Below, piece after piece: positions 1 through 32,440 of a stretch of 33,630 bases of DNA. The notes below the pieces were generated by a model. That model saw only the letters and a list, made by a program, of their open reading frames with translations. It did no database searches and was not told where the DNA came from. Both the position numbers and the translations under genes were made by a program. The DNA lies in the NCBI GenBank assembly GCA_021432655.1, contig MU271666.1:1-33630 (forward strand), in the 5' to 3' direction. Each line of letters begins with the position of its first letter. Within the stretch, counting starts at the first letter, position 1. The DNA is from Atractiella rhizophila. Taxonomy: Eukaryota.

Positions 1-3000
1 GTGCACCAGGAAAGACATGATCTCTAGGCTTGGATACACAGACTGCGAAGAAGTGGAGGGGATTGAGCGTGTCAAGCTTCCAATTGTGGACGGGAGCGAG
101 GAGGGGAAGAAGAGGAGGAGGGATCTGGTGAGGACTTGGGCGGAGGTTGGCGCTAGATTGTATTCTCTCAAGGAGGACCACAGTAAGTCTTAGTTACACA
201 GACGGTGAGCTCTTGTTGATATGTGCGCGCAGAGGAGGAGATCATTGTCCCAGAGAATAAATTCATCCCTCTACATGTCTTTCAGGCTGTCGAGACCTTG
301 AAGAGAGTTTTTGGGCCTATTGGTGAATCAATTTCCACTTGACGCAAGGTGGATACTAAAGATGTCGACAGCGCAACCAGTCAATCTGGCTATCAATGCC
401 CCCGCCTTCTCGAAGTACTACGAGGTCTTAGGCATTCGAGAGATCTCTACAGAGTACGTACCTCCTCTTAAACTATCTAGACGGTCTAAAAAGGAATAAT
501 CTGTATAGTCAGCTCATTGAATTCGCTTACCGACGCCAACGAGCTTCGAATCGACGCAATCACGCCTATTACCTTGAAGGCAGGTGTTCCTCGTACTATT
601 ATCTCGCCATTCGTGTCCAGTTCTAACGGGGGGATGCATTAGCTCTCTCCCGAATTGGAGATGTACGTGGTTCCGAATATCTGAAGGGGATAGTGGTACA
701 AGAACGCTCCTGCGGTCTCTACACAACATCTGACATCGAAAAGGCTTTTCTCGACCTGACATGTCCTCCAGACGCATCAGAAGACATGATCAGCAAGAAG
801 TTCAATGATCGATGGCATGACAATACTGATCCTGCCATACGACACGATCTTCTTGAAGCCCTCAATATTATTGCAACGGAGAGGGAAAGTGACTTGCTCA
901 AGAGTACTCGGGCGAGTTGTAAAGAGGGACCGCGAGAGCCGGCTATGGATATTGAGAAAGCGAGGCTTGTGTTGGGGCATATGGATGATATGGATGACGA
1001 GATGCTGCTCGCGCTTTACGACATTCGGGTGAGTTTCCCTCCTTCGTTTATGTTCGTAGTAGTGGATGCTAAGTCATGCATCAGATTATGGACTCTCCTG
1101 GTTTGAAGGACCAGATGAAAACTGCACTGGAAGTCATTGCCAAGCAGAGGAATAGTGAGGCGTTGCTAGAGTTCGTGAAGACTGGGCAGAAACGTGCGCC
1201 GTTACTTCCAAGAATGGCTCATTAGATTCTGACTGCAGGGGTAGCTTCTCCTGGAGCTTTTGCAGCCGCAAAGGCCGCCCGTCCAGACTTTCCGGTGGGA
1301 CTGGAGAACATTGCCAACACATGCTACCTCAACTCATTGCTTCAGGTAAGCTCCTTGCGGTCTTGACAACTGAGGTAACCGATGAACGGGACTAGTATTT
1401 TTTCACGATCAAAGATCTCAGAGAGATCATTTTGCAGGCTGATCAGTTTGAGGAGGATGACACCTCGTCCAAGCTCAAACGCGTAGGAGGGCGGGAGGTG
1501 ACAAAACCAGAAATTGAACGATCCCGAAGATGTATGCTCTCTACGTTGTCTCACTTTCGGCTCATGAGGGAACAACAGTCATCATCTTGCTTCAGCATCT
1601 CTTCCTTACCTTACTCACCACCAAAGACGGCGCCGTTGTCCCCGAAATTGAGCTTGCAAAACTAGCACTCGTACCTGGCAAGGAAGAAGAACCTCATTCG
1701 AACCCGACAGAAAGTACCGAGGCAACGCTCGTAGACCATGCGGCACCAGCTCATCTGCCCAGTCCGACGACAAGCGTCCTAGGAAAGAGAGGGAGCGAAC
1801 ATTTGGACGAGCGGGAAGGGATGGAGGTGGAAGGGTTGACAGTGGCGAGTCCGAAGCGGCGAAGTGTGGATGAAGATTATGACATGGTAGAGGAGGAGGA
1901 GGAGGCAACTCCTGTCCGTCGTTTCGAACCGTCCAGGCAGACGGTTGCTGTCCCAGATGAAGATAAGACTATGATTGTTGATGAGTCTGTTGAAGCATCA
2001 GCATCATCGTCAGTACAGGATGGCACCCACGAAGACGTAGGGATGGAAATAGCTCCTCCGCCTCTGCCTCCTCGTCCAGAGAACCCTCCTACAGAATTCG
2101 GACCAGCTCTACCTCCGCCAGATCCCAAATCTCAGATGTCGCTTGAGCAACAAGTTGCGTCCTACATGTCTTTCGGTATGTGTCCTACTTGGGCTTCTGG
2201 AAGTGTGTTGAAGCTTTCGCACAGGTAAACAAAACGACGTGTCAGAATGCTTGGATAACATCATGTTCCAGATCGAATCTGCATTAGACTCTGAAAAGTT
2301 AGCGAAGACGAAGGTGGGAACTGAAAACCTTGTGAAGGAGTATGTTCGCTGGCTATTTGGCGTTCCAAGTTGATAATCACTTAGTCTCTTTTACGGCCGG
2401 ACCGTGCAAGAGCTTCGTTTCACAAATCCGACGAAGGACGAGGAACCTCGAATTAAGGAAGAAGAGTTCTTTCACCTTCTTGTCGATGTAGCAGAAGAGG
2501 GCAGGGATCTGTACGACGGTCTTGATGCCTCCTTTGATGAATCCGATGTCGAAATTGAAGGACGAACCGCCCAGCGTAGCGTCATGATCAAGGACTTACC
2601 ACCCATATTACACATTCAACTCCAGGTTTGTTCGCCTCCATTGAATCAGGTTGATGTTACTTAGAAAACGTTAGCGCGTACAATACGATCGGATTCTTAA
2701 GCGAACATACAAATCTAACGCTCATATGGCATACTCTCCTACGATTACGATGGACCGTTATTGTACTGTCGACCCCACCAACAACCAGGCTGTCGAACGC
2801 AAAGAGCGCACGCGAACTTTACGGAAAGAGCTCGATGAGCAACGAAGTCGTCTGACCCGTATCAAGCAAGGATCCAAAGTGCGCCAAAGCCAGTTCATAC
2901 TTGCTATCTACTAATGGGATGAGTAGAAGCCACCGATTACTGAGGTCATGAAGCTCGTTTACGAATCTCTTCCCAAGCGCAATAATCCCATCGAACTCGA

Positions 3001-13998: not shown

Positions 13999-14038
13999 GA
14001 AAAATACTCTCTCTCTTTTCAAAAACCAAACTTAAAAA

Positions 14039-15345
14039 ATGTCGGAGGTTTGGGGAGATATGGAAACGCGCGAATCGCCGACGAGCGAAGAACACATCCA
14101 TCACTTAGGAAGGATGTTCCAATCTCTACACCTTACAACCGAAAACCAGTTCAAAAAAATCGAACAAGACCTCATAGCAAGTTTCAACCAACAAAATGCA
14201 CAAACCTCCCAAAATGCGCACGAAATTGCGCAACTGAGGTCCGACGTCCAGAACACAAACGACCGAATTTTACAATTACTGGACTCCAGACTGCCTCCTC
14301 CTAGAGACAGTGGAACCACCTCCCCCTTTTTATCGAGAACAGACCCAATACCCCAAACTTACTCTCCTCCCTCTATACCTCAAAATGCACAAGTTTCGCC
14401 TTATGCAGGAATCAGACTTGCCACACCCTCTCTCTTCAAAGGAGTGCCTAGTTCAGCGCCGACCATTCTTCGTGAAATTCACATCTACACGTCTGCCATC
14501 CCACGACAGTTCCCTTCAGAAAAGTCGAAAATCTCATTTACTCTATCGTATATGAAAGAAGGAGACGCTGAAAAATTCGCCTCTGGGATACCCCGCCGAC
14601 TTGTCGAAAATGAGGAACAGATTTCGTGGGAGCAATTTTTGTCGGAGTTCAGATCGCCTTTTTGCAAAACTGACCACAAACTTATTGCACAAACGAAACT
14701 GTCTTCCCTGCAACAGAAGGGCAACCTGGAGTCCTACATCATCAAGTTTGAGGAGTTGGCAAATCAGGCAGACTTTGATGATGAGGCGCTCACATTTTTC
14801 TTCAAACGGGGCCTCAACCCTGCCCTGTACCTTAAAGTGACACAAGGTGATTCCCCAAGTCCCTTGAAGAGTGGAAGAAAAAAATGCGGCGAATTGACGC
14901 AGAAGAATTTGCGCATTCCAGCTTCTTTCAGGGCATCTCATCGGCGACGAGTGGAACCCAAAATACACCTTCAGCAAAGAAAGATCACTCAAAATCGACG
15001 AAACAGAAGGACAACAGCGCACTCCCTCTGTACCGACCGAGCGCGGCTTTGTCGCCCATCGCCGCTTCGCAACCTCATGAAGCCAAAGACCCCGACGATA
15101 TGGAGGTGGACGCAACAAAGTTCAGACCGCCTCGTTGTCGAAGATGCCAAAAGATCGGACACAGAGAGAAGGAATACAAGGTGTCCATGAGCAAAGAGCA
15201 ATATCTTCATGCACAAGGGAAATATTTCGACACTCGTCTCGTAGAACAAGAACGACAATCTGCGCAAATCGCCGACCGGTCGCCGAAAACGAGCGTCGCT
15301 CAATCATCGGATCTGGAGGAGGATTTTTCAGACGGCGATGGGTGA
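14039..15345 (+). pseudogene. Retrotransposon gag, broken by one frameshift near 14850
   Basis: Retrotrans_gag-like motifs KISFTLSYMKEGDA, SWEQFLSEFR, LQQKGNLESYIIKF and FFKRGLNPAL. It continues in the -1 frame as PKSLEEWKKKMRRID, DPDDMEVD and a degenerate zinc knuckle CRRCQKIGHREKEY; stop at 15345. Confidence 0.88.
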
Positions 15346-15365
15346 AAGGAGTGTCCCCGTCGCCG
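15321..15365 (+). promoter_or_regulatory. Putative -1 programmed ribosomal frameshift signal (gag-pol)
   Basis: G_GAT_TTT heptamer (15321-15327) in the gag frame, a 5-nt spacer, then a 10-bp stem CGGCGATGGG (15333-15342)/CCCGTCGCCG (15356-15365). The -1 frame is open past the gag stop. Confidence 0.75.
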
Positions 15366-18300
15366 ACTTGCAATTCATTTTCGTCATCTAAAATCACTTC
15401 CAACAAAATGCTGCTTTGCGCAGATTTCCCTTCTCCCGAACAAGACTCCCCATTCCCAAAATTGTGCTTTCCAACTTGGAGACAAAGATGCGCAGATGTC
15501 GCAAAAATGTACGACAAAGTCCATTTACATTCTTACAATATCGATGGATCCCTCAATCATCAATCAGGGGGGTTCCATCCATTCTGTCGCTTATTTACCC
15601 ATTTCGATCGCCGCCCATCACGAAGTTTGGCAATTCGCTGTGGCGGAGTTGGGGACAGTCGACATGATTCTGGGTCATGACTGGCTAAGACACCACAACC
15701 CAGAGATTAACTGGGCTTCAGGGAAAGTTGAGTTCTCTCGTTGCCCCACCAGTTGCAACGCGGTTGATGTGTCTACCACAGGAGACCAACTTCCATCGTC
15801 TTCTTCCTCAATATGTGCTGCCATGACAAAATCGCAGAAACTGGCGAAAGACGCAGCGGCGATGAGACCAAAGAGCGTTGTCGAAATACCGACGCAAATC
15901 ACCGATTTTGCAGACATTTTCGACGACGAAAAATTCAAAACCTCGCTTCCTCCTCGACGACCTTGGGACCATGCCATCAACCTCAAACCAGAAGCTCAAC
16001 CATATGCTGGTCCCGTCTACCCCTTGAAAAAAGACGAACAAGCGGCGCTCGACCAGTTCATTGATGCTGAACTGAGCGCCGGTCGTATACGTCCTAGCAC
16101 AGGTGAACATGGTGCTTCCGTCTTTTTTACACACAAAAAAGACTCACCCGAACTTCGTCCCCTTTTCGACTATCGTAAGTTGAATGAAGCCACAATCAAG
16201 GACAAAACTCCACTCCCTATCCAAGCTGAGCTTTCTCCATGGTCTCTGGTAAGAAATTTTTTAGCAAGATTGACCTGAGAAAAGGTTTCAACAACATTCG
16301 CATCAAAGAAGGAGACGAGCACAAAGTGACGTTTCGCACAAATCGCGGACTTTTTGAACCATTGGTGATGTATTTTGATCTCTGCAACTCACCGGCAACT
16401 TTTCAGGCTTTCCTGAACTCTATTTTTCGCGCGATGATCGCCGCTGCGTTCATCTTCATATACATTGATGATATCCTCATTGCGACAGAGACTGAAGAAG
16501 AACATTGGGAACGTGTTCAACAAGTTTGTCAAATTTTGCGCGAAAATGGGCTTTACGTAAATTTGCAGAAATGCGTTTGGTGTCATGAGGAGGTGGAGTA
16601 TCTAGGCTTGATCATTTCCAGCAGAGGGATCGAACCAGATCCAGTGAAAGTTGCAGGAGTGATGGATTGGCCGGAACCAAAAAACATGAAGGAAGTCCAA
16701 ATGTTCCTCAGTTTCGCTAATTTCTATCGCCACTTTTGCGACAGATTCAGTTACATCGCATGACCTTTATATGAACTGACAAAAATGGAGGTTTCCTGGG
16801 ACTGGGGGGTAGATCAACAACGTTCGTTCGCCGCTTTGAAACAACTCATGACTTCGGCGCCTGTCTTGGCACATCGCGAACAAATAGGACGGTTTTTGCT
16901 TGAAGTCGATGCATCAAATTTCGTGACAGGCGCCGTTTTGTCGCAAATGAAGCCAGATGGGAAGTTCCATCCTCTCGGTTTCGTGTCAAAATCGCTCAAC
17001 GCCGCCCAGAGGAACTACGACACCTACGACAAAGAAATGCTCGCGATTATGTGTGGACTGCAAGAATGGAGACACCTCCTTCAAGGTACTGATGAGCCAT
17101 TTCTGATCTTGACCGATCACAAAAATCTTGAGTATTTCAGAATGCCTCAAAAGTTGAATCGGCGACAAGCGCGCTGGATCACTGAACTTGCATCTTTCAA
17201 CTTCTCTCTTTTACACCGTCCTGGACGGAACTCCGCAAAACCAGATGCGCTCAGTTGGCGACCGGATCACAAACCGGGGACTTGTGACAACTTCGATGTA
17301 GTATTACTCCCAGAATGTTTTTTCAACACAGATCGTATCACCATCAACGCGACTGGGAGCGCGGTCGCGCTCACAAGATAAATGTCGGAGTTGAGTATAC
17401 TGGAATGTGTGAAAAAGGTACCTGAGAACAAGTAGTCAAGGCCTTGAGAGAGATCCTAAAAGAACCAGTCGATGCAATTCGCCGACGGGAGTGGCAAGAA
17501 GTCGATGGCGCTCTATACTTTCGCGGAAAACTCTACATTCCCCGAGACGACGAAATTCGCTGCTCGATTCTGCAAGATCTGCATGACTCGCAAATCGCCG
17601 GACACCCAGGAGTAAAATCGATGATACCTCTCGCAAAAAGGTACTACTGCTGGCCAGGTTTGGCGCATTACGTTCGCCGCTATGTCAGCGCCTGTCATAC
17701 TTGTCACAGAACGAAAAACTTTCCCCCCCCACCTGTCGGGTTTTTGCAACCAAATGACATTCCCACACGTCGATGGCAAATTGTCACCATGGACTTGGTT
17801 GGACCACTCCCAGAATCTGGGGGGTTCAACATGATTTTCATCATAGTTGACAGACTCTCAAAACACACCCATCTCATTCCCACCCATTCGATGATGGATG
17901 CAGAAGGCCTTGCAAGACTTTTTCGCAACACGTATGGAAGTTACATGGACTTTTCGATATATCACAATTTTTGATCGCAGCAACAAGTTTCTGTCCAAAT
18001 TCACATCTGCGCTTTTTCGCCTATTAGGTATCAAAGGTTCACCATCGACAGCCTATCACCCGCAAGTGATGGTCAGACTGAATGTATGAACCAAGAGGTT
18101 GAGCAATATTTGCGCATTTTCTGCAACCACCTTCAGGATAATTGGGTGGAAGGACTTCCCAACGTAGAATTTGCGCTCAACAATCGCGTTAGTTCGGCGA
18201 CGGGCGTAACTCCATTTTCGCTCGATTGCGGTTAACATCCTCGCATGGCCATTGAACCCATCTCCGACGAAGAAGTTCCCGCAGCAGCGCAATTCGTCGA

Positions 18301-19199: not shown

Positions 19200-19858
19200 T
19201 TGGCCAAGGAGGGCATACCCATCACTCTTGATCTTGATCTTTTTCTTGTTCCAACATAGAGGTAGATAAGTTCTCCAAAGCCATTCTGATCACATGTCTG
19301 ACTTGAAGATTGCGGGGAAACGGACGAGAGCAGCATCTGGGCCCTCAGGTTGGACGAAGACATAAACTCCCTCAACCAAGACAAGATTAGAAACCATAGC
19401 TTCATGCCCACAGAGCTACTCCATGAAAGGAACCCATTAGACCGGCACACACTTACACCGGAGGATGTGAGGGACCTGGTGGAGGGCGAAAAGGAACTGA
19501 CAAGGAAGAAGGTCGAGGTATATCTTGGACAGTTGGAGGCAAAAAGGGAACAAGCATTTGTTAACAAGGTCAAGTACACGGCAACGATGCAGGAGAATTT
19601 GGATAAACATGCAAACCCAGTCGAATTTAAGGTGAATAATCTCGTCATGGTGCTTGACAGCACTATCCGCATGCAATCCTCATGAAAACTTGAAGACATG
19701 TGGTTTGGACTGTTCAAATCGTCGGGAAAAGAGGAAACATCAATGGAGAAGAATCAACAAAGGCACAGTCTTGGATTTTGGAAACATTAACTGGAGTGAG
19801 AGTAGGTGGATATTTCCACAACCAACGCCTTAAACGCTTTCACACAAAGGGACCCTGA
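19200..19858 (+). pseudogene. Degenerate integrase C-terminal fragment of a different Ty3/gypsy-like element
   Basis: ORF 19350-19685 ends VEFKVNNLVMVLDS...SS*KLEDMWFGLFK (GPF/Y-like motif), then YFHNQRLKRFH. The protein sequence is dissimilar to the 13149-13648 copy. Confidence 0.6.
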
Positions 19859-19979
19859 AGCGGAAGAGGTTTAGCTACAGTATTATCAGATCATACCTCA
19901 TATTTCATTATCACATATCTTATCATTTACTCATCTCATATCACCATTTTATTCAGCCTGCCACCTATTTTATCTTCTC

Positions 19980-20389
19980 TGTGAGCCGGCACCTGTGGCA
20001 GGCACAAACATGTACAATCCATAGAATGAAAGCTAAGATACATCCACTTTCTCTCACTCACGTTCCATCCCCAGTCGCCCATCCATCTATTGTGCTTCCA
20101 TTACCACTTAGCCCAAATGTGACTATTCTCCTCTTATTGACGCCACGTAATCCCACAATTGCCTTCCCCTTTTGGTCCTCTTACATGTTTCATATGCTCT
20201 CCTCTATACTTCGTGGCAGTGTGATTCTGCTTGTATATAGATCGGAGAGTAGTGGAGGTGACCTTAGAGCATTCTCTTAGGTTTATCTCCACTACAGGCT
20301 AGTCTTCTCATGTCATATCATGCGCTTAGGTTTATTTCCACTGCAGATGCATCACCCATCAGCGACCGTACATAGTGTCCGCCATAACA
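19980..20389 (+). repeat. Diverged LTR (~410 bp) of the same family, no matching TSD
   Basis: TGTGAG...CATAACA. The 3' two-thirds align with the other LTRs (TATATAGATCGGAGAGTAGTGGAGGTGACCTTAGAG). Flanks TTCTC and TAATG differ. Confidence 0.8.
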
Positions 20390-20700
20390 TAATGAGGTTC
20401 TCAGCTTCCTCCTTCCTCCACTTCCTCAAACCATCTCTTAAGGTTGCCTCCTCCAGGAGTTTCAAGCCTTCAATCGCATCCATGATCATCTTCACTTCTT
20501 CTTATTTCCAGAATGCATCGAGGCACGCTTCATTGACATTCAGCATGTCTGCCATGACTTCATTTGGTATGGCAACACTGATATTTTAAAACTGTAGTCT
20601 CTTCCTCCTCCACAAGTATCCAGCACCAGCATGCAGTTTCAAGCAAGAATGTTTCTCCCATGCAAAACAGGTTCGTCTTCCAGAGCTGGCATATTCTAGA
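20390..20700 (-). pseudogene. Fragment of an F-box/LRR-like unit, truncated at the LTR
   Basis: Minus strand gives AFWK*EEVKMIMDAIEGLKLLEEATLRDGLRKWRKEEAENL, homologous to AFWDEEEAKLILNEI...RKWRNEEVENF in unit 2. Confidence 0.7.
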
Positions 20701-21149
20701 GACCCAGAGCATTGGTATAGGTTCTATATCCTTGCTAAATGCAATGAAGATCATGATGAGAGGGATCAACTGAACAGGTAGATGTGAGACAAGTCTTGAC
20801 TAACTGGGGGACTCAGACTCAAATGATAGTCACACTCTGATACAGGGGTGGAGGAGGAAATGATTTGTTATACCTTATAGGGACTTCTGGGGTACAAGAG
20901 TGAGTGCAATCAAATGGATTGTAATGTGACTTATTGCAGAGAACATAGAACATAGGTGCGATTGTCAACCATCGTTTGAACACCGGACTTGTGGTGAAGT
21001 GTCACAACTTTAGCTTGAGGTTGTGAGGCTGTGCCTGGCTATAAAGCGGCTTTCGGACGGTATATCAGAGGAGCATTGTTGTCTTTCTTGATTTCAAGTT
21101 ATCTTTTGATCTGGAAAGCACTTTTCACCAATGAGATGTCTCAAATGCA

Positions 21150-21463
21150 GCTAGAATGTGCACATTCATCTCCTTTGATTCATAGCATTTTTTCTTCTAC
21201 TCTTAAAGGGACTTGGGAAATCTTCTTGGGTCATGTTGTGGAGGGCAGGATTGAGCCTATATTTGAAGAAGGTAAGGGTTAAAAAGCTAAAAAGGGGCAG
21301 CAACAGAAGGGCTACACTGAGTTGATAATAGGAGAGTAAACATAAATCACACCAAGCAGCGGCAGGAAGCATAACACAGTGATGGCAGAGACAAATGGGT
21401 GAACAGGCACCACGAAGTAAACATGCAACCAGGCACCAATTCACACAGAATGCAAACCTGACA
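21150..21463 (-). mobile_element. Internally deleted remnant of the same gypsy family: LTR 5' part (21463 to ~21281) fused to a gag fragment (~21280-21150)
   Basis: TGTCAGGTTTGCAT start at 21463. FFKYRLNPALHNMTQEDFPSP aligns with gag FFKRGLNPALYLKVTQGDSPSP (14790-14865). Confidence 0.75.
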
Positions 21464-23120
21464 CATCTTTGGAGCATAACAAGAAGGTGGCTGTGCCTTC
21501 CATCTCCTCCACACTCCCATCACACTGCTCTACCCGACACTCTCTCAGAGAGTTCCTGGCATTCTTGATCTCCTGCTGGGGCCATGCTCCAAAGAACAAC
21601 AAAAGATGCAAAACCTTTTTTTGTTGCGACTTCACAAAAAACCAATGGATGAAGTCTGCAAAGTCAAAGGGATCCACCACGCAGTACTGGACATTAATGT
21701 GTTGTATCCCCACTGCATTCTTGAGAGTGCTGAAGAAATGTGGGTCGACTAGGCGTGAAGATTCCTCGCCCCCATCGAGGTCGAGGTACTTAAGTTGTCG
21801 GAGGTGTGATATGTCCAGGGGAGCTGGTAGGATGGAGGTTTTTCCATTAGGCGAAAAGGGAGCAAGCCTGATCTCGAGATGTTCCAGAAGAGGCGGCAGA
21901 GGGCAGTCTGAGATGGATGGATGGAGTGGGCAAATATTGGAGAGAGTCAGACGTCGCAGGGAGGGTGGGAGGGAGAAGGATGAAAGAGGCGGGTACTTGA
22001 AAAGAGTAAGGGTTCTGAGGGCAGAAGATAATTGAAGGGTGGCTGAAGCCGAAGATGCGGAGGAGGCCACTTCGCTAGCAATGAGTCCTTTAATCCTTCC
22101 TCTTGTCCTCAACATAAAATCCGCCACCTCCTCGGCTCTCCACTTCCTTCGGCCACAGCGTCCAAAGGTCACCATCTCCACGCATTTCAACTGTGCAATT
22201 TCATTCAATACCATCTTCGTTGCTTCTTCGTTCCAATGTACATCCAGATACACTGCCGTAATATTTGGAGAGCCTACGATGATTTCTTTCAGCGTCGCAA
22301 CCTTGACATATTTTGCCAACCAAAGTTTCCTCCACAGACGTCCAGCACCAGGATGTTCTCGTAAGCGAGCATGTTTACCTTCTGTGGAATCAGGTTCATT
22401 CCGATAAGGAACCCAAAGCTGCCTCCACTTCTTGCACACATGGGAGAGATTGGGAGTGTTACTTCCGACTTCACCACCTGTGACAAAATCGAAGATGGTG
22501 CACAGGAGCTCGACAGGCAGTCGCGAGATAAAGCACGGATTATCCGCTAGCGATGGCGAGAGCGAGACTTGGATGATGGCCGCGGGGCCCGGCTGGAGGT
22601 ATGGCCGGTAAAATGATTCGTCATTACGGTTAGGAACGAAGCGCTGTTTGTGTCCGGAGTATAGCGGAATGGGGCCGAAAATTACTTCAGGCGGATCTGG
22701 AAGAAGTGCAAACGTCCGAGTGATGGGAGTAAAACTTGATGGCAGGGCACCTGCAGTCTGTCTGCCCACCTCACAGGTTGCCGTGATAGCTCCTCCATTG
22801 AATGAGATATCCAAATTTGCTCTATCATCGTTTCCAACTGCATGACAAATGTATTTAAGTGAGCAGCAGGATAGTTTTGAGGACATCTGCGCGTAATTGT
22901 AATCCGCCAGTTGTGGAGGCAAGACAGAAGCGGTGAGTGTGTGGATTGATGAAGGTAGGCACGATAGAAATGAGGGGAGAATAGAGAGGTAGAGTGAAGT
23001 GCAGATTCTCGCTTGGACGATGACATTGATCAGGACGGTTGAGTCTGGTCCCCGTATCGGAGAATAGTGGTGCAAGATAGACATTTGCTGCTCATTCTCC
23101 TGCTCAAGAAAGATGCTAGT
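21441..23120 (-). CDS. F-box/LRR-like (RNI-like) unit 1, intact frame; probable last exon of a multi-unit gene
   Basis: 547-aa ORF with F-box-like ISRLPVELLCTIFDFV...LSHVCKKWR followed by Leu-rich repeats (LRTLTL, LRRLTLSN, LEHLEI, LKYLDLDG). The frame extends 12 codons upstream to an AG acceptor at 23121. Confidence 0.8.
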   Translation of the reverse strand, partial: TSIFLEQENEQQMSILHHYSPIRGPDSTVLINVIVQARICTSLYLSILPSFLSCLPSSIHTLTASVLPPQLADYNYAQMSSKLSCCSLKYICHAVGNDDRANLDISFNGGAITATCEVGRQTAGALPSSFTPITRTFALLPDPPEVIFGPIPLYSGHKQRFVPNRNDESFYRPYLQPGPAAIIQVSLSPSLADNPCFISRLPVELLCTIFDFVTGGEVGSNTPNLSHVCKKWRQLWVPYRNEPDSTEGKHARLREHPGAGRLWRKLWLAKYVKVATLKEIIVGSPNITAVYLDVHWNEEATKMVLNEIAQLKCVEMVTFGRCGRRKWRAEEVADFMLRTRGRIKGLIASEVASSASSASATLQLSSALRTLTLFKYPPLSSFSLPPSLRRLTLSNICPLHPSISDCPLPPLLEHLEIRLAPFSPNGKTSILPAPLDISHLRQLKYLDLDGGEESSRLVDPHFFSTLKNAVGIQHINVQYCVVDPFDFADFIHWFFVKSQQKKVLHLLLFFGAWPQQEIKNARNSLRECRVEQCDGSVEEMEGTATFLLCSKDVSGLHSV

Positions 23121-23169
23121 CTATAGCCAGTACAGGGGTCAGAAGAAGAAAGCTAAGAACAAATCATAC

Positions 23170-24860
23170 CTGTCTCGCATTCCCGGATAATGAAACTTGC
23201 GCCATTCGATCCCCTTCAGTAATCCACGACGATTCATGCGCCACACTCACTCCACATTCTCTCATCGTTCGTCTAGCCATCTCGATTTGCTGCGGTTGCC
23301 ACTCGCCAGGGAATAAGAGCACACATAGATTGCGTTCGATGGTCCAGTCTCCCTTTTCCGATCCATGCTCGTCACTATCCATATCCCCCTTCAACCCACG
23401 ATCCCCAAAAAACCAGCGGGTGAAATCTGGGAAGTCGACACATTCCACCGAGCAGTACCGAAGGTAAATGTGTTTTATGTCCTTTGAATTCCTGAGAGTG
23501 CGAAAAAACCTGGGTAAAACAAAGCGTGAAGTTCCCGCGCCACAGTCTAGGATGAGGTGTGTGAGATGTTTGAGGCATGTCAAGTTGAGCGGAGTGGGTA
23601 GGGTGGAGGCGTTTCCGTCGTCCGAGTAGGGAGCAAGCTTGATCTCGAGATGTTCTAGAAGAGGCGGCAGAGACGAGGTTAAGAAAGAAGGAGGGAGTGG
23701 ACACATGTCGGAGAGAGTCAGCCAGCGCAGAGCGTGTCCGAAGGAGAGCGCTGCGAGAGGCGGGTACTTGTAAAGTTCCAGGTGCTCCAGGCCAGGAGGC
23801 AAGTGAAGGCTAGCCGATGCTGAAGGGGTAAAAAAAGAGTCCGCTACATCACTAACAAGGAGCTTTCTGATCCTCCCCTTTGCCCTTCGCATAAAGTTCT
23901 CAACCTCCTCGTTCCTCCACTTCCTCACGCCACTGCAACCAAAGGTCACCATCTCCACCGATTTCAAGCGTGCAATTTCATTCAATATCAGCTTCGCCTC
24001 CTCTTCATCCCAAAATGCGTCCATATACACGTCCGTAAGATTCGGAGAGCCCAAGATGGTTTCTTTCACTTTCTCAAACTCAATATATGTTTCCAACCGA
24101 AGTTTCCTCCACAAACGTCCAGCACCAGGATGTTCTCGCAGGCGAGCATGTTTACTTTCGGTGAAATCAGGTTCATTCTGATAAGGAACCCAAAGCTCCA
24201 TCCACTTCTTGCACACATGCGAGAGATTGGGAGTGTTACTTCCAACTTCGCCACCTGTGACAAAATCGAAGATGGTACAAAGCAGCTCGACAGGCAGTCG
24301 TGAGATAAAGCACAGATTATCTGCTGGCGATGGCGAGAGCGAGACTTGGATAATGGCCGCGGGATTCTGATGGAGGGATGTGTCATCACGGCAGACGTCC
24401 CTCCGTTTGTTTCTGGAGATGGGGCAAAAATACCCTGGGAGCGATGTTCTGGAAGAAGCCCAAACCGGCAGGTGATGGGAGTGACGCCGGATGGTAGCGG
24501 AACTGTAGCCCATTCACCAACCTCACAGTGTACTGTGATGGATCCTTCGTTGAAGATGATGTACAGGTTCGCTGTACCATCGGTTTCGACTGCATTTTTG
24601 ATGTCTTTAAGTGAACAGCATACTTTCGAGGGCAGCTGTGTATAATCATAACCTGATTGGGGAGGCAAGATCAAAGTGGTAAGTGTGTGGACGGATGAAG
24701 GTAGGCACGATAGAAAAGAGGGGTGGATGGAGATGTGTAGTGGAGTGCTGACTCCCATTCCCGGTGGAACGATGACATTGATTAGTGCGGTAATGTCTGG
24801 TCCACGTGAATCCTGATGTAAGACAGGCCGTTCATTCTCTTGTCGAGGAAAAATGCTAGC
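23170..24860 (-). CDS. F-box/LRR-like unit 2; one frameshift near 24420 (mutation or sequencing error)
   Basis: ORFs 24066-24758 and 23164-24513 together align end-to-end with unit 1 and carry the same F-box-like motif. The segment is bounded by an AG acceptor (24861) and a GTATGA donor (23169). Confidence 0.75.
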
Positions 24861-24880
24861 CTGTAGCTAATGAATCTAGA

Positions 24881-26590
24881 TCAGATGAAAGGAGGAAAAC
24901 CGAAGAGAGACCTTGCCCGCGATGTGTCAACGCCTGATGAAGCTTCAGCTTCCCCGTCACCGTCCCTAATCCACGATGTCTCGCCAGCCCCATACTCTTT
25001 CATCATCTGCCTCGCAATCTCAATAACCTCCTCCGGCCACTGTCCAAAGAATAGTAGTAAACATAAATTGCGTCCGGTCATCCAACCATCCTTTTCAGAT
25101 TCGTCCTCTTCAGCCGACCCCCGACCCCCAAAGAACCAGCGGACAAAATCTGGGATATCGAACGCATCTAACAAACAGTAGCGAATGTCAATGTAATGTA
25201 TTGCCTCTGCAATCTTGAGAATGCTAAGGAAATGAGGGGAAACAAGGCCAGAAGATTCTCCACCGCCATCGAGGTAAAGGTAGGTTAGTTGCGCGAGGTG
25301 TGATAAGTCCAGGGGAGTCGATAGGATGGATGTCGTTCCATCAGGGGAGTAAGGGGCAAGCTGGATGGAGAGGTTTTCCAGTAACGGTGGCAGAGGGAAC
25401 CGTGAAATGCAAGGAGGAGGGAAGCGCATATCAGAGAGAGCCAGGCGCTTGAGGGACGTTGGAAGGATGGGCAAGGGGAAAATTGGGGACCTTCGCAGTG
25501 TTAACTCTGTAAGGCCAGGAGGCAGCCGAAGGCCATCTAATGCAGAAGGGGCAGAGGGAGGAGAGGAGTCTTCGACGCCATGAAAGGTGAGCTTTCTGAT
25601 CGTCTGACGGATCCTCCACAATTCCTCGATCTCTGACGTCTTCCACTTGTTCAAACCCATAGATCCAAATGTTACCTCCTCCAACCGTTCCAGCCCATCG
25701 ATTGCGTTCAACACCATCTTCGCTTCTTTTTCGTTCCGAAATTCATCCATGTACACTTTTGTAACATTCGGGGAGCCTTCGATGATTTCTTTCAGCGTCG
25801 CAACCTTGACATATCTTGCCAACGAAACTTTCCTCCACAGACGTCCAGCGCCACGGTGTAATCCCAAGCGAGCGTGCTTCTCCCTTGCGGAAGCAGGTTC
25901 ATCCCAATAAGGAGTCGAAACAACCCTCCAGAGCGCACATACCTCAGAGACTGGGCGGATCGGCGTGGGACCTCCTTCTTCGCTGAGCGCGAGGAGGTCC
26001 ATGATGATGGAGAGTAACTCTACGGGCAGACGGGAAATATGGCATGGAATAACACCTGATGTGGGCAGCGACACTTGAATGATAGTCACAGAGCTCTGAT
26101 GAAAAGTTTGACAGCATCGTTCGTCATGGATAGGGACGAATTGCCGTTTGAGGCTGGAATATACGGCGAGGGGGGAGAAGATGGCATTGGAGCGATCATG
26201 GACAGGAAAAGTGGTAGTAAAAGTTTGTGTGTCTGCCCTAAGATCATGCAAATGGACAAAGACTGGTTCCGAGAAGGTCGCTGTGACACTTTTCAAGTCG
26301 TGGACGATGAAAAGGTTCACTACACCGTCGTTCCCAATTGCCCCCGATACATCCAAGTCCGACAGTTTGCGGGACACCGTTGTGAAATCTTGAGGCTTCC
26401 ATCGAGGAGGTAGGTCAAAAATGACCCGGAGGGTGTGAATTGATGTTGGCAATCGAGATAGGAAAGAGGGGAGAATAGAGATTTGCAGCGAAAGTTGAAG
26501 TCGTGACGGGGTGATGAGATGGATAAGCGCCATTGCGTCTGGCTTTGTCGAAGGAATAAAGGCTTGTTGATCAAACATTGCTTTGTCCGA
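24881..26590 (-). CDS. F-box/LRR-like unit 3, intact frame
   Basis: 565-aa ORF with ISRLPVELLSIIMDLL...VSEVCALWR and the same LRR-like C-terminal region; in-frame CAG acceptor at 26591. Confidence 0.8.
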   Translation of the reverse strand, partial: SDKAMFDQQAFIPSTKPDAMALIHLITPSRLQLSLQISILPSFLSRLPTSIHTLRVIFDLPPRWKPQDFTTVSRKLSDLDVSGAIGNDGVVNLFIVHDLKSVTATFSEPVFVHLHDLRADTQTFTTTFPVHDRSNAIFSPLAVYSSLKRQFVPIHDERCCQTFHQSSVTIIQVSLPTSGVIPCHISRLPVELLSIIMDLLALSEEGGPTPIRPVSEVCALWRVVSTPYWDEPASAREKHARLGLHRGAGRLWRKVSLARYVKVATLKEIIEGSPNVTKVYMDEFRNEKEAKMVLNAIDGLERLEEVTFGSMGLNKWKTSEIEELWRIRQTIRKLTFHGVEDSSPPSAPSALDGLRLPPGLTELTLRRSPIFPLPILPTSLKRLALSDMRFPPPCISRFPLPPLLENLSIQLAPYSPDGTTSILSTPLDLSHLAQLTYLYLDGGGESSGLVSPHFLSILKIAEAIHYIDIRYCLLDAFDIPDFVRWFFGGRGSAEEDESEKDGWMTGRNLCLLLFFGQWPEEVIEIARQMMKEYGAGETSWIRDGDGEAEASSGVDTSRARSLFGFPPFI

Positions 26591-26661
26591 CTGCAGCCCA
26601 TCCCGTTTGTGTTAAAAGGGAAGAGATGACATCTGAATAGAGAAAGAGGATCAGAATTTAC

Positions 26662-27858
26662 CTGTTTTGCATCATTAACTTGAACCATTTCAGATTCCAC
26701 CGTTCTCGGTTCTTGCAGCGTGACGCCGTGGACTTCTGCGTTCTCTGTGAGGCGAGGGTCAAACCTTCCTTGATCACCGGAATCCACCTTAATCAATTGG
26801 TCCGTCAAGCTCACATCCTGCATGGTAGGGTAATCACGCCTCGCATTGGGGTCCGCCGCCTCTGCCTGGACCGTCGAAGAAATGATTGGGTCTATTCCGG
26901 GATAAATCATGAGCTTTGTCTTCTTCGCCGAATTTTCGAATTCCCCTCCCATCTCATCGCGTTCGAGCGTTGAAAGACGGCGTTTCGGAGGGCGGGAAAG
27001 AGAATCTGAGGAACACTCAATTGCATCCTCTTCGTGAGTGATCATGAGCTTCATTTTCTTTCGCATCTTTTTGAAATCCTCAGTCCTAACACATTCCGCG
27101 GCGGAACGGGGACGTTTTGGAGGGCGCTCAGGGTTATTAATTGGAGAAACGATCTGGTTCTCTTCGTGTGAACTCATGAGTTTTATCTTCTTTCCCCGCT
27201 CTTCGAATTCGAGTTCCCTTGTCGACCCTGGGACGCCAAAGGGGGAAAGAGGGCGTTTGGGAGGCCTGTGTGACGCAACACTGACGGCACCAACGTTCTT
27301 TTGCAAACATGGATCGTTAGCCGACTCGGAGAACGCCGCATCATTCTGCTGCAGCTCCGTTATGCCCTCCGATGAAGCAGCGCTTTCAACTTCGAGTGAC
27401 TCAAGTTTGATCTCCGTTGTCCTCTTGCCATGATCCAGAATTTCTGTCTCCCCTGACGTGGACAGATCATAGAGAGGCTTGCAGTCGTCTTCGATATTGT
27501 CAAAGCTTCTGAGTGAGGCCGTAGTTTGAGAAGTTCCGCTGTCCATCGACGACGGATGGGGAGGTTGCTTCGCTTGATCAAAATGGAGAATGGGATCCGC
27601 GGGACCTTCATCGCCGTCGTTAAAAGAGTCTGCATCGTTGGGTACCCAATATCCTTGGTCTCCTTCCCCTTTCCACCTGTTGCGCTCGAAAAATCTTCGT
27701 CTATCGCTATCGGTAGCACGAGACTCTTCTGGCATGGCTTGCCATGCGTAGACCATCTCTATGAGGGTCCATTCGGAGTTTTCCAACTGAAGCACGTCGC
27801 TCATCAGAGCCATGAAGTTTTCCCTCGAAAAGCCTGAGTTGAGGAAACCTTGATCTCT
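26662..27858 (-). CDS. N-terminal exon (~399 aa) of the F-box gene: short helical segment plus acidic low-complexity linker with three basic repeats; further exons probably upstream to ~28700
   Basis: Long open frame ending AKQ|GTAAAT (donor 26661). An upstream 50-nt intron 27859-27908 (GTGCGT...CTCAG) keeps frame with ORF 27804-28073. Confidence 0.65.
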
Positions 27859-29539
27859 CTGAGAGGGAGTGAGGGCTCTCTCAACCCGCTGAAGGACATC
27901 GAACGCACCTCAGTTCCCAAAGCCACAACACCATTTGCCATCTCTTCGCAATCGCTAACTAGGTCTTGGGAGGACGAATGGCAGCAACGTGTTTTTTGAT
28001 TTCTGGCTGACCAGGACCAAGCAAAAGAGAAGGGCTTCGGCGTCAAGAGCACAGCGTGAAAGTTGGTGAGCAAAGAGGTCGCAGGACTTCAACTGGGGCG
28101 AGGAGAGTGATAAGAGCATTAAAGTACGGACGCTGGAGATTTAGCTTCTTTGTTTGTCACACAGAATCACAGATGGAAGCTACTCCTTTCAATATTTCTC
28201 CCAGCCGTCTGATAAAGTTCCAGGGTCCCTTCCACTACTTTCCCAATCCTCTATGGGACTTTCAAAGCAAAGCGCAATCTCATCGTTGAAGCCCGAACCT
28301 CCGCATGTTCTTCTTGCCCGGCAGAAGAACGACCTCGAAACAAGATTCCAGGATAAGCAGATAGCAGAGTCGAAGTAAACAACGTCGTTGTGCATTATGC
28401 ATGTTCGCCCTAATGAAATGCATCCAAATACAGGAATCAATCAATCGAGGTTCGTCTTCTCCTCAAACTTTGGGCATTCAACTGAATCTGCAACTGAATA
28501 TATCCCAGAACCTTGCTGACAGTCTGACCGCCAGTACGACATCCATTCTTGCTCAGACCTCAATACCGCTCGTAGGTCCTCAACGTCGGGCATAAATGTC
28601 CAATACGCCTTGTCATAAGAACGATGAGGTGAAATTTCTGTGATAATCGCCAATACCGCAGATTTCATGTTGCAAAGAATCGGGAACATTCTCCACAACA
28701 TGATAAGCCGCAGGAGTGGGTCAATTAGGGTTCAAACCAAGCCAAACTCTATTTTCAAAAAGCATTAATATTTTTTGAGCGTACGCTGCCATTACCATGG
28801 AGACTCGAGAGGAGAGCGAGCTCGAAAGTAAGGCTTGGGAACGGTAGGGTGGGTTAGTAGCGGAAACGGTGGAAGCGGTGCGTGGTAGCCGTTTCTTGAA
28901 GGAGGCAGATCGTGTGAATCTGCCAGGTCTGGATGCTTGAGGGAGAAGCGCGGTGATTTGATTTGAGAATTTGAGAGGAGGAAGCTGGGAAGGAAAGTCG
29001 ATTTTTGTCTGAGTTGGATGTGAGTACTTCTACTCACTCACACCCGAAAGTTAATGGTTCTGAAGCATCAAATCGATTTGTAGAATGGTCGAGATTCGTT
29101 GCAGATGTTGATTTCCAGGGCCAATCACAGTTACCGTTCAATTTGTATGATGTAACGTTAATGTACCACCCCGTCACTCTGCGCTTTTGAGTGCTTATGT
29201 CGTGGTTCCAAAATTCGTCGTGCCGCATGGCCCCTCTCGATGTTGTCCAAGTTGGGGAGGGTGATACAAGAGACTTACCTTCTTGTCACGTCTTCTTCCA
29301 AGCATAAGTCATGTACCTTCAAATCACACCTCTTCACCCTCCTGGATCCATGTCATTTTAGACTTCTCACTTACCTCATACTCTCCATCTTGCTTCTGAA
29401 AATAGCCATCCGCTGCTCACACCACTCTCCAAAGAATAGACGAATGCTCAATCACATTCTTTCATCTCTTCCACTTGCTTTGATTGCCTGTTTCCTGGGA
29501 GACCGAACCATTCCACTATACAGAATAAAACTTCCATTG

Positions 29540-29990
29540 TATCGCATTTGCATTTCTGACAGTGCGGAAGAGCTGGAGGGTGGAGCTGAGGTGTGAGCGG
29601 TGAGATAAGTCCAGTGGAGCGGTAGGATGGAGATCTCTCCATCAGGCGAGTAGGGGTGAGGTCTATTAGACGAGGGGGCAGCGGGTCGCTTGAGATACAG
29701 GGAGGGAGGTTAGAGAGCACAAATCGGCGAGCGCGCGTTGGAGGGAGATCGATGGCAGAGGCGGGTATGCGTGAAGCGTTAGATGGTTAAGTTCCGAAGG
29801 TAATTGAACGCTTTGTGATGTCAAAGGTGCAGAGTCCTCCACTTAGAAAGCTGCAAAGTACTTGATCCTGTCACCCATCCTCCGCATAAACTTCTCGACC
29901 TCCTGCCTTCTCTACCTTCTTGAACCCTTACGATCGAATTTCAAGTAATCCACCCTCTTCATACCGTGAACCGCATCCAAACCTCCCCTT
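29540..29990 (-). pseudogene. Degenerate F-box/LRR-like unit fragment
   Basis: Minus strand gives RRQEVEKFMRRMGDRIKY, LNHLTLHAYPPLPSI and LPPCISSDPLPPRL, with stops and frameshifts. Confidence 0.7.
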
Positions 29991-30749
29991 ATCAACTCAT
30001 CCATCCAACCTTCGATGGAGCGCAGTCAAACTGTGAGGAGAGACCGAGACGAGCAACGTGGTCGTCTAACTCATATCAAACGAGGATCCAAAATCAGTTT
30101 ATCACAAGTCCTGCCGTACGCGAACTCATGAGACGAGGAGGCGGAGGTCACGAAGCTCGCCTACAAATTAATCGCTTTCAAGCGCAGTGATCATCTCCAA
30201 CTCGAACGTGGGTCAGATGAAGTTGTAGATATCCGGAGATCCATTGCTTCTTTCCCCTCTTTTATTTCCTAGATGAGACATCGATGCGGCGAGGGGGAGA
30301 TGAAGAGCAGAGAATGTGGCAGAACGCTTCTTGGGAGGAGGACACGAAGAATGGGAGGGTTTGGCAGCTGGTGAATGTGTGGTGACAGGCAGGGGTGGGT
30401 GGTTGGCGGGCACGCAAAGGAGGAATGAGGAGAAAACGAGTTGTCAACTGTGAGTACACTGATCCCTCTAGGACTTGCGCTGTTCTAAAGGCCACCAAAG
30501 GCATGGCCAAGATTAGATTAGGTGCAAGTAGCGCGCTAGTCGTCACTGTCGTCCAAGCTGTATGACATAAACCGCTCTCCGCTGTAGACTGATGCTGGCA
30601 TGTTCCCGTCCCAAAACTTGCGATGTTCCGTAACGCTACATTGATTCCCAGCAATTTTTGTTACGTCTTAGACTTCCCTTTCAATATTTTGCTAGGTATT
30701 AGCGGCATATGAGAGGCTGACCTTCCTGCTATGCCTTCTTTGCGGCACA

Positions 30750-32440
30750 AATGAAAAATCTGACTGCGACTTCAACTTCACGACGGTCCACCCTCCCGAA
30801 CCCAGGTCCAATAGTCTTCCTGGCACTATCGATCTCCTCCTCACGCCACTCTCCAAAAAAACAGACGAAGCCTCAACTCACGTCCTCGCGTCCTTTCCTC
30901 TCTTGCAGTACCCTCTCGCTGTTCCCAAAGAACCAATGGATGAAGTCTGAGGATATAAATCCAGGAAAATTAAACCAGTCTATGACGCAGAACTGAACAT
31001 CTATGATTTGTCCCATCTTTGCCTTTCTGAGAACCGGTGAAACAACGTTTGAAGTTTCTTCGCCGCCGTCGAGATAGAGGGAGGTGAGATGCTTGAGATG
31101 TGATAAGTGAAGCGGAGTGGACAGAATGGATGTTTTTCCATTAGGCGAGTGGGGAGCGAGTTTCACCTCGAGGTAGTCGAGAAGAAGTGCCAGTGTGGAG
31201 CTTGAGGTGGAGGTATGGAGTGGGCACATAGTCAAGCGAGTAAAACGTCGCATGGAGTGTGAGAAGGAAAGCGATGGCATAGGTGGATACTTTCGAAGGA
31301 ATAAGGATTTAAGACCAGGAGGTAACTGCAGCCAGGTTGATGCAGAAGATGCAGTGGAGGAAGAAGAGTCCGGCAAGGTCGGAAGCATGGAAGTGTTTGA
31401 TCCTGTCAACCATCCTACCCACAAACTTCTCGACCTCTTCCTTCCTCCACTTTCTCGCTCCACCATCTCTAAAGGTTACGCCATGCACACTTTCCAAGTC
31501 CTCAATCACATCGAAGACCGTCTTTGTCTCCGCTTCATTCCAAAATGCGTTCACCCACACCTGCTTAACATTCGGTGAGCTCAAGATGACTTTGGCTGTC
31601 CCAACAGTGATATCTTCATCAAAGCACAGTGTCTTCCACAGGCGGCAAGCGTTAGGATGGATCTTCAACTGGGCATGCGCAGAAGCAGGTTCGTCCAAAT
31701 AAGGAGTGACAAGTGACTTCCAGCGTTGGCAAACCTCGGAGAGCAGGGACACTTGATTGTGATGGAATCTTGGGCCACCATTGTTCCCTCTGAAGAAATT
31801 GAAATTGTGAGAGGGCTTTGTTGGGGAGGCGAGAAATAGAGCATGGAGCACTAGCTGGCGATGGGGAGAGCGAGAGTTGGGAAAAGGTTGCAACCTTCTG
31901 ACGGGATGATAGGGCCGACTTATCATCATCAGTCGTGGGTACAAAGCGCCGCTCCTTAAAGGAGTAAGCTGCGACAAGGGTGAAGACCGCCTCAGAGCAA
32001 TCTTGAACGAGATGAAACGTGCGAGTGAAGGACTGAACCAGTGAGGGCAAATGTTCCGAATCGAGACGTACAGGTCCATCGACTTCTCCAATGGCCGTGG
32101 TCACACCTTGCGGGCTGACATCCACACAAAGATTGGCCATACCGTTTTCGACGACATTTTTGATACATTCGAGCGAGAAATAGGACAATTTCGAGGACAG
32201 TTCCCCCATGAGTAGACCACGTAGAACAATAGTGATTCGGAGCGTATGGATTGATGGAGATAGGCGAGAGAGGGAAGAGGCAGAATGGATAGGTGGAGTC
32301 AGGTCTCGTGTGGCGCCGAAACTCCTGGCCCTGGGGTGATGAAGTTGACGAGCACTGTCGATTCCGGTTCGGAATCCTCGCTTGATAGTTGGGCAATCGT
32401 TTCCAAGAAACATTGTAGCACAATCAATCCACATTAGATC
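30750..32440 (-). pseudogene. Near-full-length pseudogenic F-box/LRR-like unit
   Basis: Pieces in shifting frames: SIHTLRITIV, PCSISRLP, LLSEVCQRWK, NAFWNEAETKTVF, RKWRKEEVEKF, KYPPMPSLSF, LAPHSPNGKTSIL, LYLDGGEETS and DFIHWFFG. Confidence 0.8.

Follow-up and report, generated by a model that had tools for sequence, protein, structure and literature searches.

Three tandem F-box/leucine-rich-repeat units in a spliced message of Atractiella rhizophila, with a frameshift in the second unit

Introduction

F-box proteins are viewed as adaptors that combine one F-box with one substrate-binding domain, and to our knowledge the known receptors of Skp1-cullin-F-box (SCF) ubiquitin ligases each carry a single F-box. 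Those of the FBXL type (Skp2/FBXL2, TIR1, COI1, D3 and yeast Dia2) have the F-box followed by a leucine-rich-repeat solenoid. Here we describe a locus of the root-associated fungus Atractiella rhizophila (assembly GCA_021432655.1, contig MU271666.1, positions 1 to 33,630, the whole stretch of 33,630 nucleotides (nt) being called the window below) where RNA-derived contigs give a spliced mRNA, on the minus strand, that consists of an unrelated leader and three tandem copies of an F-box/leucine-rich-repeat unit, named A, B and C, the second of which carries a frameshift. The units resemble the FBXL-type receptors in the order of F-box and solenoid, but differ from them in having a beta-rich domain of ~190 amino acids (aa) before the F-box and in being repeated two to three times per message.

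Tandem, lineage-specific expansions of F-box genes are well known in plants and nematodes (Caenorhabditis). The family at the present locus is similar in that it is fast-evolving, confined to one species and arranged in tandem clusters with pseudogenes and fragments, but the copies described here are spliced in frame into one message rather than being separate genes. Conjoined or read-through fusion genes (transcription-induced chimeras) are neighbouring genes of one strand whose transcripts are spliced together so that the stop codon of the upstream gene is skipped. The present locus likewise joins adjacent same-strand genes by splicing past an upstream stop; however, its partners are paralogous, no intergenic DNA lies between them, the joining intron is apparently the family's own first intron, and the order of an A-type unit followed by a B/C-type unit is old, as it is common to the composite gene model P0001 (public predicted proteins are given as P numbers).

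Tandem F-box units within one predicted protein, as at the present locus, are also found in P0090 (three units), P0106 (four units) and P0094, P0096 and P0104 (two units each). The units of these proteins are 430-610 aa long and 30-68% identical to each other, two F-box-like stretches are recognized by Pfam in seven of the nine proteins scanned, and the nearest ESM Atlas clusters of P0090 are F-box proteins of Basidiomycota. Unlike the present locus, they are known as gene predictions only, and their kinship with our units is distant and confined to the F-box (E = 1e-4 to 1e-7). Multi-unit F-box gene models may be a wider feature of Basidiomycota. A Dictyostelium RasGEF is reported to have two F-box motifs (PMC1273635); in this unrelated protein the F-boxes are accessory motifs and not repeated whole receptor modules. 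Our literature search turned up no paper on proteins with repeated whole F-box modules, and among the genome papers listed for this species none appears to concern the present family.

Exons, introns and RNA support

An initial annotation, made from the sequence letters, had described the locus as a gene of ~2,100 aa in which what look like separate open reading frames are linked by four short introns. The features found here are listed below in the order of transcription, with positions in the window.

27909..27941, minus strand: coding exon 1, with the ATG at 27941; MANGVVALGTE, 11 codons
27859..27908, minus strand: intron 1, 50 nt, GT-AG, phase 0; GTGCGT...CAG
26662..27858, minus strand: exon 2 (leader), 399 aa with three repeats of ~44 aa
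26591..26661, minus strand: intron 2, 71 nt, GT-AG, phase 0; GTAAAT...TTAAC...CAG
24917..26590, minus strand: exon 3 (unit A), 558 aa with N-domain, F-box-like motif and leucine-rich-repeat region
about 25916-26038, minus strand: F-box-like motif of unit A
24867..24916, minus strand: intron 3 (A-B), 50 nt, GC-AG, phase 0; GCAAGG...TAG
23170..24866, minus strand: exon 4 (unit B), 1697 nt (2 mod 3)
about 24190-24306, minus strand: F-box of unit B, in the shifted frame
23121..23169, minus strand: intron 4 (B-C), 49 nt, GT-AG; GTATGA...CTGAC...TAG
21441..23120, minus strand: coding part of exon 5 (unit C), 559 aa, stop codon at 21443-21441
22536-23057, minus strand: N-domain of unit C (residues 22-195), with equivalent parts in A and B
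about 22413-22529, minus strand: F-box of unit C

Two public runs, X1 and X2, were aligned as contigs over 19800-29500. X1 is recorded as a root metatranscriptome (RNA). For X2 the kind of run is not on record; 0.94 of the sampled words are present in it, and because its contigs carry six precise joints with GT-AG or GC-AG ends, we infer that it is complementary DNA (cDNA). Contigs show no transcript starts, ends or isoform shares, and the depth of each contig was left out of any ranking of isoforms.

All four introns are precisely removed in the X2 contigs, with joints at 27858/27909 (intron 1), 26590/26662 (intron 2, crossed by contig 11, which covers 25785-27792), 24866/24917 (intron 3, CT..GC on the plus strand, within contig 10) and 23120/23170 (intron 4). 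The last joint was also found in X1, in a 219-nt contig with flanks of 71 and 148 nt and 0 mismatches. Contig 10 of X2 is 3,429 nt long, spans 22282-25809 and crosses both inter-unit introns, 3 and 4, free of mismatches and gaps (0 of each). The depth of the contigs is similar along the locus (13-16); they reach upstream of exon 1 to 28474 (contig 12, 27909-28474) and continue downstream of the unit C stop to 21309 (contig 8, 21309-21912). Three of the four introns have GT-AG ends, and two of these contain branch-point-like motifs. The exons are 33, 1197, 1674 and 1697 nt long, followed by 1680 nt of coding sequence in exon 5, and they encode 11 + 399 + 558 + (565 codons and 2 nt) + 559 aa, with phase 0 at the ends of all exons that precede the four introns. 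The exons are thus joined in frame at canonical splice sites in RNA contigs, as is expected of a single multi-exon gene.

Introns 1, 2 and 4 lie exactly where they had been placed from the sequence. For the intron between A and B, predicted at 24916-24861, the donor, the GC-AG type and phase 0 hold, whereas the acceptor and the length of 56 nt do not: splicing uses the TAG at 24869-24867 as acceptor, six bases before the predicted CAG (24861), which adds Leu-Gln to the product. Of the predicted exon lengths (~399, 558, 564 and 559 aa), all agree with our measurements except that of exon 4. The related peptides expected after the acceptors, ASIFPRQENE and TSIFLEQENE, are both present, and so is an in-frame stop within each inter-unit intron: the TGA at 24883-24881 in intron 3 would terminate a stand-alone unit A, and the TGA at 23166-23164 in intron 4 a stand-alone unit B. 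The gaps between units had been judged too small for promoters, and indeed there is no intergenic DNA between the units, which show 60-73% identity among themselves in DNA.

Four other X2 joints (21846/23625, 23926/25894, 21958/25875 and 20432/24095) skip about one or two unit lengths and were considered as exon skipping. They have non-splice ends and short sides of only 21-37 nt, and were not read in this way; they are probably transcripts of paralogues that cross-map at the 90% threshold, and less probably exon-skipped or recombinant forms.

The frameshift in unit B and the two reading frames

In a DNA alignment of the three units, unit B lacks 10 nt of unit A at about 24418, in a variable linker, a deletion that shifts the frame by -1. 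The frameshift, noticed earlier near 24420, is real because the length of exon 4 is 2 mod 3, and it is real in the sequenced organism because X2 contig 10 has 0 other letters and 0 gaps relative to the genome over 23170-24866, the break included. Two further features follow from it.

24066..24068, minus strand: main-frame stop codon, out of frame within unit B
24511..24513, minus strand: first ATG of a second frame of 1,007 codons, which covers the rest of unit B with its F-box and repeat region, crosses intron 4 and includes unit C

The spliced main frame encodes 1,234 aa, made up of 11 + 399 + 558 aa from the first three exons, 149 aa of in-frame unit B and ~116 aa out of frame. It therefore comprises the leader, unit A in full, the N-domain of B and a nonsense tail, with one F-box. 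The full-length multi-F-box protein that had been proposed is not encoded by this frame, which, as sequenced and transcribed, stops after one complete unit. With the break repaired, the product would be about 2,093 aa; a multi-F-box protein is possible only as an ancestral or allelic form, or through translation of the second frame.

The main and the second frame share 447 nt, in a 0/-1 arrangement. Across the overlap (24513 to 24066) no X_XXY_YYZ heptamer was found in the zero frame (0 found), and a run of five T lies at 24430-24426, where the homology changes frame. No RNA joint or indel occurs at the frameshift site in the contigs. A frame-restoring intron in unit B was also considered: a mechanical listing gave 157 GT/GC...AG spans with a length of 2 mod 3 that keep the frame open, no span close to ~24418 includes a branch-point motif, RNA joints are absent at that place, and the idea was rejected. 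Other alleles were sought in metagenomes: a protein scan with the part of unit B after the frameshift gave 46 pattern matches, 0 of which were confirmed, and a scan for an exact 24-nt pattern beside the frameshift gave 0 matches.

Domains and predicted structure

Each unit consists of a beta-rich N-domain, an F-box and a leucine-rich-repeat solenoid. The F-box that had been proposed from the sequence scores above the Pfam cut-off (20.5 bits for PF00646) in two of the three units, namely unit C (25.5 bits, E = 1.2e-5) and unit B (21.2 bits, E = 2.6e-4). Unit A retains every one of the family-invariant F-box positions I/L/P/E/V/W. An AlphaFold model of unit C (mean predicted local distance difference test (pLDDT) 68, predicted template modelling score (pTM) 0.56) has a strand-helix solenoid at residues ~240-530, with strands and helices alternating from about 265 to 527 and pLDDT mostly 64-93, so that the predicted leucine-rich-repeat fold stands, while the F-box region, with predicted helices at 203-214, 225-235 and 246-255, is modelled at low confidence. 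In a Foldseek search of solved structures with this model, the four matches at E <= 1e-3 are all leucine-rich-repeat proteins, and COI1, D3, TIR1, Dia2 and FBXL2 appear at ranks 5-28 (E = 1e-3 to 5e-3). By motif and modelled fold, the units would belong to the FBXL-type SCF receptors.

The N-domain (~170-190 aa) contains the most conserved motif of the family, SILPSFLSRLP, and when modelled alone reaches pLDDT 75 and pTM 0.72. No solved structure matches it convincingly (best VIA-align Z 2.8, with Z >= 2 for 4 of 48,161 chains; best Foldseek E 0.47), which does not show that the modelled fold is new.

The leader (399 aa) matches 0 Pfam families and has no relative at E <= 0.01 among 3130 candidates of 219-699 aa. 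Its three repeats (26893-27210, minus strand, with spacing of 135 and 132 nt) share the basic pattern RPPKRP...KKxKLM, which we take to resemble nuclear-localisation signals. The C-terminal residues of the leader, VESEMVQVNDAKQ, resemble the leader of single-unit paralogues.

Paralogues and the origin of the tandem order

To place the units within a family, we used unit C as a query and found 23 proteins, all of which (23/23) are named hypothetical protein BT69DRAFT_... of Atractiella rhizophila. When 1.84 billion representatives were searched with a 16-member profile, only 108 proteins matched at E <= 1e-3, and 43 at E <= 1e-30. Judged from the names of the hits, the family appears to be restricted to the Atractiella rhizophila lineage. 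The majority of the paralogues have one unit, a length of 520-600 aa and a Met start of their own. Relatives of 980-2795 aa were absent from 8,000 scored candidates, which is weak evidence. Among the other gene models, the composite P0001 has two units, in which parts of both F-boxes are absent and no Pfam family scored, and P0002 and P0003 each have one unit plus a partial unit. In addition, P0032 has repeats similar to tetratricopeptide repeats ahead of the family unit, and P0021 and P0042 have other N-termini ahead of it; the unit exon may be one that is readily spliced onto upstream exons.

The residues preceding each inter-unit intron can be aligned with the leaders at the N-termini of the single-unit paralogues P0011, P0013, P0016 and P0055. 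These residues are ...VESEMVQVNDAKQ before unit A, ...GEAEASSGVDTSR before unit B and ...DRMAQVSLSGNARQ before unit C, and the residues following unit C are ...SVEEMEGTA...; the corresponding paralogue leaders read, for example, AENVEMVQVAQALQ-S in P0016 and AESVEMAQVAQHADALQ-S in P0013. This alignment suggests that each unit is a whole family gene, its leader included, and most simply the inter-unit introns would be copies of the family's own first intron.

A maximum-likelihood tree calculated from 27 rows groups unit A with unit 1 of P0001 (support 100/99), and unit B first with unit C (99/97) and then with unit 2 of P0001 (100/99). These pairings suggest that the order of an A-type unit followed by a B/C-type unit is older than the split from the P0001 locus, and that the duplication that gave B and C took place later. 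Both the unit tree and the leader homology of the pre-intron segments fit the proposed duplication of an intron-plus-exon module.

Selection and the age of the break

Pairwise ratios of nonsynonymous to synonymous substitution rates (dN/dS) are 0.37 for A-B, 0.39 for A-C and 0.44 for B-C (B-C dS 0.67), and from these pairwise values the branch rates of unit B equal those of unit C. The ratios indicate purifying selection on all three units. Unit B has no stop in 565 codons; it has lost the leader Met (GEAEASSGVDTSR) and the first Met in its frame falls within the conserved N-domain, which leaves it no usable start. Because it is nonetheless constrained and stop-free, unit B was most likely read as an extension of A during the greater part of its evolution.

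For the part of unit B after the frameshift, dN/dS relative to C is 0.48. Among the 8,775 possible single substitutions in the 975 post-break codons, 378 create a stop, which corresponds to ~126 stops per substitution per site. An untranslated frame would be stop-free at P >= 0.05 only below about 0.024 substitutions per site, whereas dS on the B branch is about 0.36. These results suggest either that the break happened very recently or that translation of the second frame continues. We favour a recent lesion over continued reading of the second frame, because the site has no slippery heptamer, no RNA joint or indel and no supported frame-restoring intron.

Proposed explanation and points against it

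We propose, with a probability of roughly 0.65, that the locus is one transcription unit which arose by tandem duplication of a module and which is truncated in this strain by a recent frameshift in B. The module that was duplicated would consist of a short leader, a phase-0 intron and a unit exon of ~1.7 kb. As the stop codon of each unit lies just inside the next intron, splicing would remove it, and the leader, A, B and C would come to form one message, transcribed from a single promoter. Each unit would act as a substrate-receptor module of an SCF ubiquitin ligase, the F-box being expected to bind Skp1 and the solenoid the substrate. In the sequenced strain the rest of B and all of C would form an untranslated tail of ~2.7 kb, and its frame of 1,007 codons would still be intact because the frameshift is very recent.

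Several observations weigh against this explanation. The RNA origin of X2, whose run type is unrecorded, rests on its canonical splice ends. With starts, ends and isoform shares invisible in contigs, a single promoter is presumed, and intron-retaining forms may exist. The main-frame stop lies ~900 nt upstream of an intron, which predicts nonsense-mediated decay, yet the contig depth is similar throughout (13-16). The second frame shows no relaxed constraint, which fits continued translation equally well. The F-box of unit A is recognized only as F-box-like (PF12937, E = 0.2), below the Pfam cut-off, that of unit C is modelled at pLDDT below 50 (residues 190-223), and the Foldseek E-values are weak, about 1e-3. 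Finally, the public annotation models only the leader and a truncated unit A. This gene model, P0017 (868 aa), starts with MANGVVALGTE/RDQGF, follows exons 1-3 for 449 residues of unit A, and then takes a 46-nt GT...AC 'intron' (25243-25198) and stops. The joint at 25243-25198 is absent from the RNA contigs, which read straight through it. Units B and C were not among the annotated proteins in either of the length ranges searched.

A further step, which we put forward tentatively and consider rather doubtful, is that the frameshift is a private, recent lesion and that the normal allele encodes ~2,093 aa with three complete receptor modules following the repeat-rich leader, a multi-headed SCF adaptor kept by selection. 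Such maintenance of a multi-module protein is speculative, and is suggested because the order of an A-type and then a B/C-type unit is common to P0001.

Alternative explanations

The locus could also be read as overlapping but separate genes, each of which would have a tiny first coding exon within the upstream unit's 3' end (MAQVSLSGNARQ ahead of unit C and MVQVNDAKQ ahead of unit A, for instance) and then a first intron of its own, with B as a dead copy. The upstream gene would then end at the stop in a retained intron, and the long contig would be an assembly of overlapping transcripts. This would agree with the fact that most paralogues are single-unit proteins with their own Met, with the Met of the leader motif (VE.EM.QV), which is conserved ahead of A and C as well as in the leaders of the paralogues, and with the position of the stops directly after the donors, which would give C-termini of normal length upon intron retention; moreover, a contig that spans two genes proves no single transcript. 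However, the spliced path is assembled over both unit junctions in one contig of uniform depth, and the contigs do not break at the junctions, which they would if an unspliced form were common. A dead B is difficult to reconcile with 565 stop-free codons, dN/dS of 0.37-0.44 and a constraint like that of C in a unit without a usable start, and there is no intergenic space for promoters or terminators. In addition, without splicing the frame of the leader would continue across intron 2 and reach a stop at ~26320, over 100 codons out of A's frame. We consider separate genes unlikely.

The signs of decay in the family raise the question of whether the message is transcriptional noise in a decaying birth-and-death cluster, with incidental read-through splicing and no product that matters. 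The window holds a unit broken into three frames and two fragments, P0001 has lost parts of both F-boxes, and unit B itself is frameshifted. Noise would nevertheless leave unexplained the purifying selection on three units, the single defect in 2,100 codons, the precise removal of all four introns with mostly GT-AG ends and branch-point-like motifs, and the recurrence of the B-C joint in the root metatranscriptome, and we regard it as decidedly unlikely.

The second frame might still be translated, through -1 ribosomal frameshifting near 24418-24430, internal initiation at the ATG at 24513 or an internal promoter, and the product would then have two or three F-boxes despite the frameshift. We hold this to be highly improbable: the 0/-1 overlap, the run of five T at the switch and the 975 stop-free post-break codons, with dN/dS no higher than elsewhere, would suit it, but the overlap has zero slippery heptamers, five T are short for transcriptional slippage, the ATG lies 3,257 nt into the message and beyond scanning ribosomes, the RNA shows neither joint nor indel at the site, and a 10-nt deletion in a variable linker sits at the break, as expected of an ordinary mutation.

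Neighbourhood of the locus

Further members of the family flank the locus in the window.

20364..20790, minus strand: decayed further unit fragment downstream of C (tblastn), with the F-box and the next ~100 aa in two frames; repeat family D3
29537-30007, minus strand: further family fragment (tblastn)
30744..32278, minus strand: upstream paralogous unit in three reading frames (tblastn, open reading frames), likely a pseudogene

With these remnants counted, the array would once have held at least six units. Two other canonical joints in X2, 29019/29084 (GT..AG, plus strand) and 29313/29372 (CT..AC, minus strand), lie upstream of the locus and therefore suggest other spliced transcripts between it and the upstream family fragment. 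Elsewhere in the window, a Ty3/gypsy retroelement at 14036-17974 (plus strand) has gag, reverse transcriptase, RNase H and an integrase zinc domain in several broken frames, and an open frame at 627-1106 (plus strand) carries a Pfam RPT domain (E = 3.3e-16), a repeated domain of UCH-type proteins, which would make it another gene linked to the ubiquitin system.

Significance

The weight of the finding hinges on intact alleles or on translation of the second frame: in the one strain considered here the product is truncated after one module, so that a multi-F-box protein is as yet hypothetical. If intact alleles exist, they would encode a natural multivalent SCF receptor, and a multi-headed adaptor of this kind, if true, would dock several Skp1-cullin cores or several substrates at once. 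Against the view of F-box proteins as adaptors with a single F-box, whole modules are here concatenated in frame by splicing, the order of two of the modules is old enough to occur at two paralogous loci, and purifying selection acts on the modules. The locus would also be a clear example of how a new gene architecture can arise from the tandem duplication of an intron-plus-exon module. Moreover, if the three-module reading is true, the same design may be real in the predictions with two to four units from Basidiomycota; since the public annotation misses most of the transcript described here, multi-F-box predictions in other Basidiomycota need not be artefacts.

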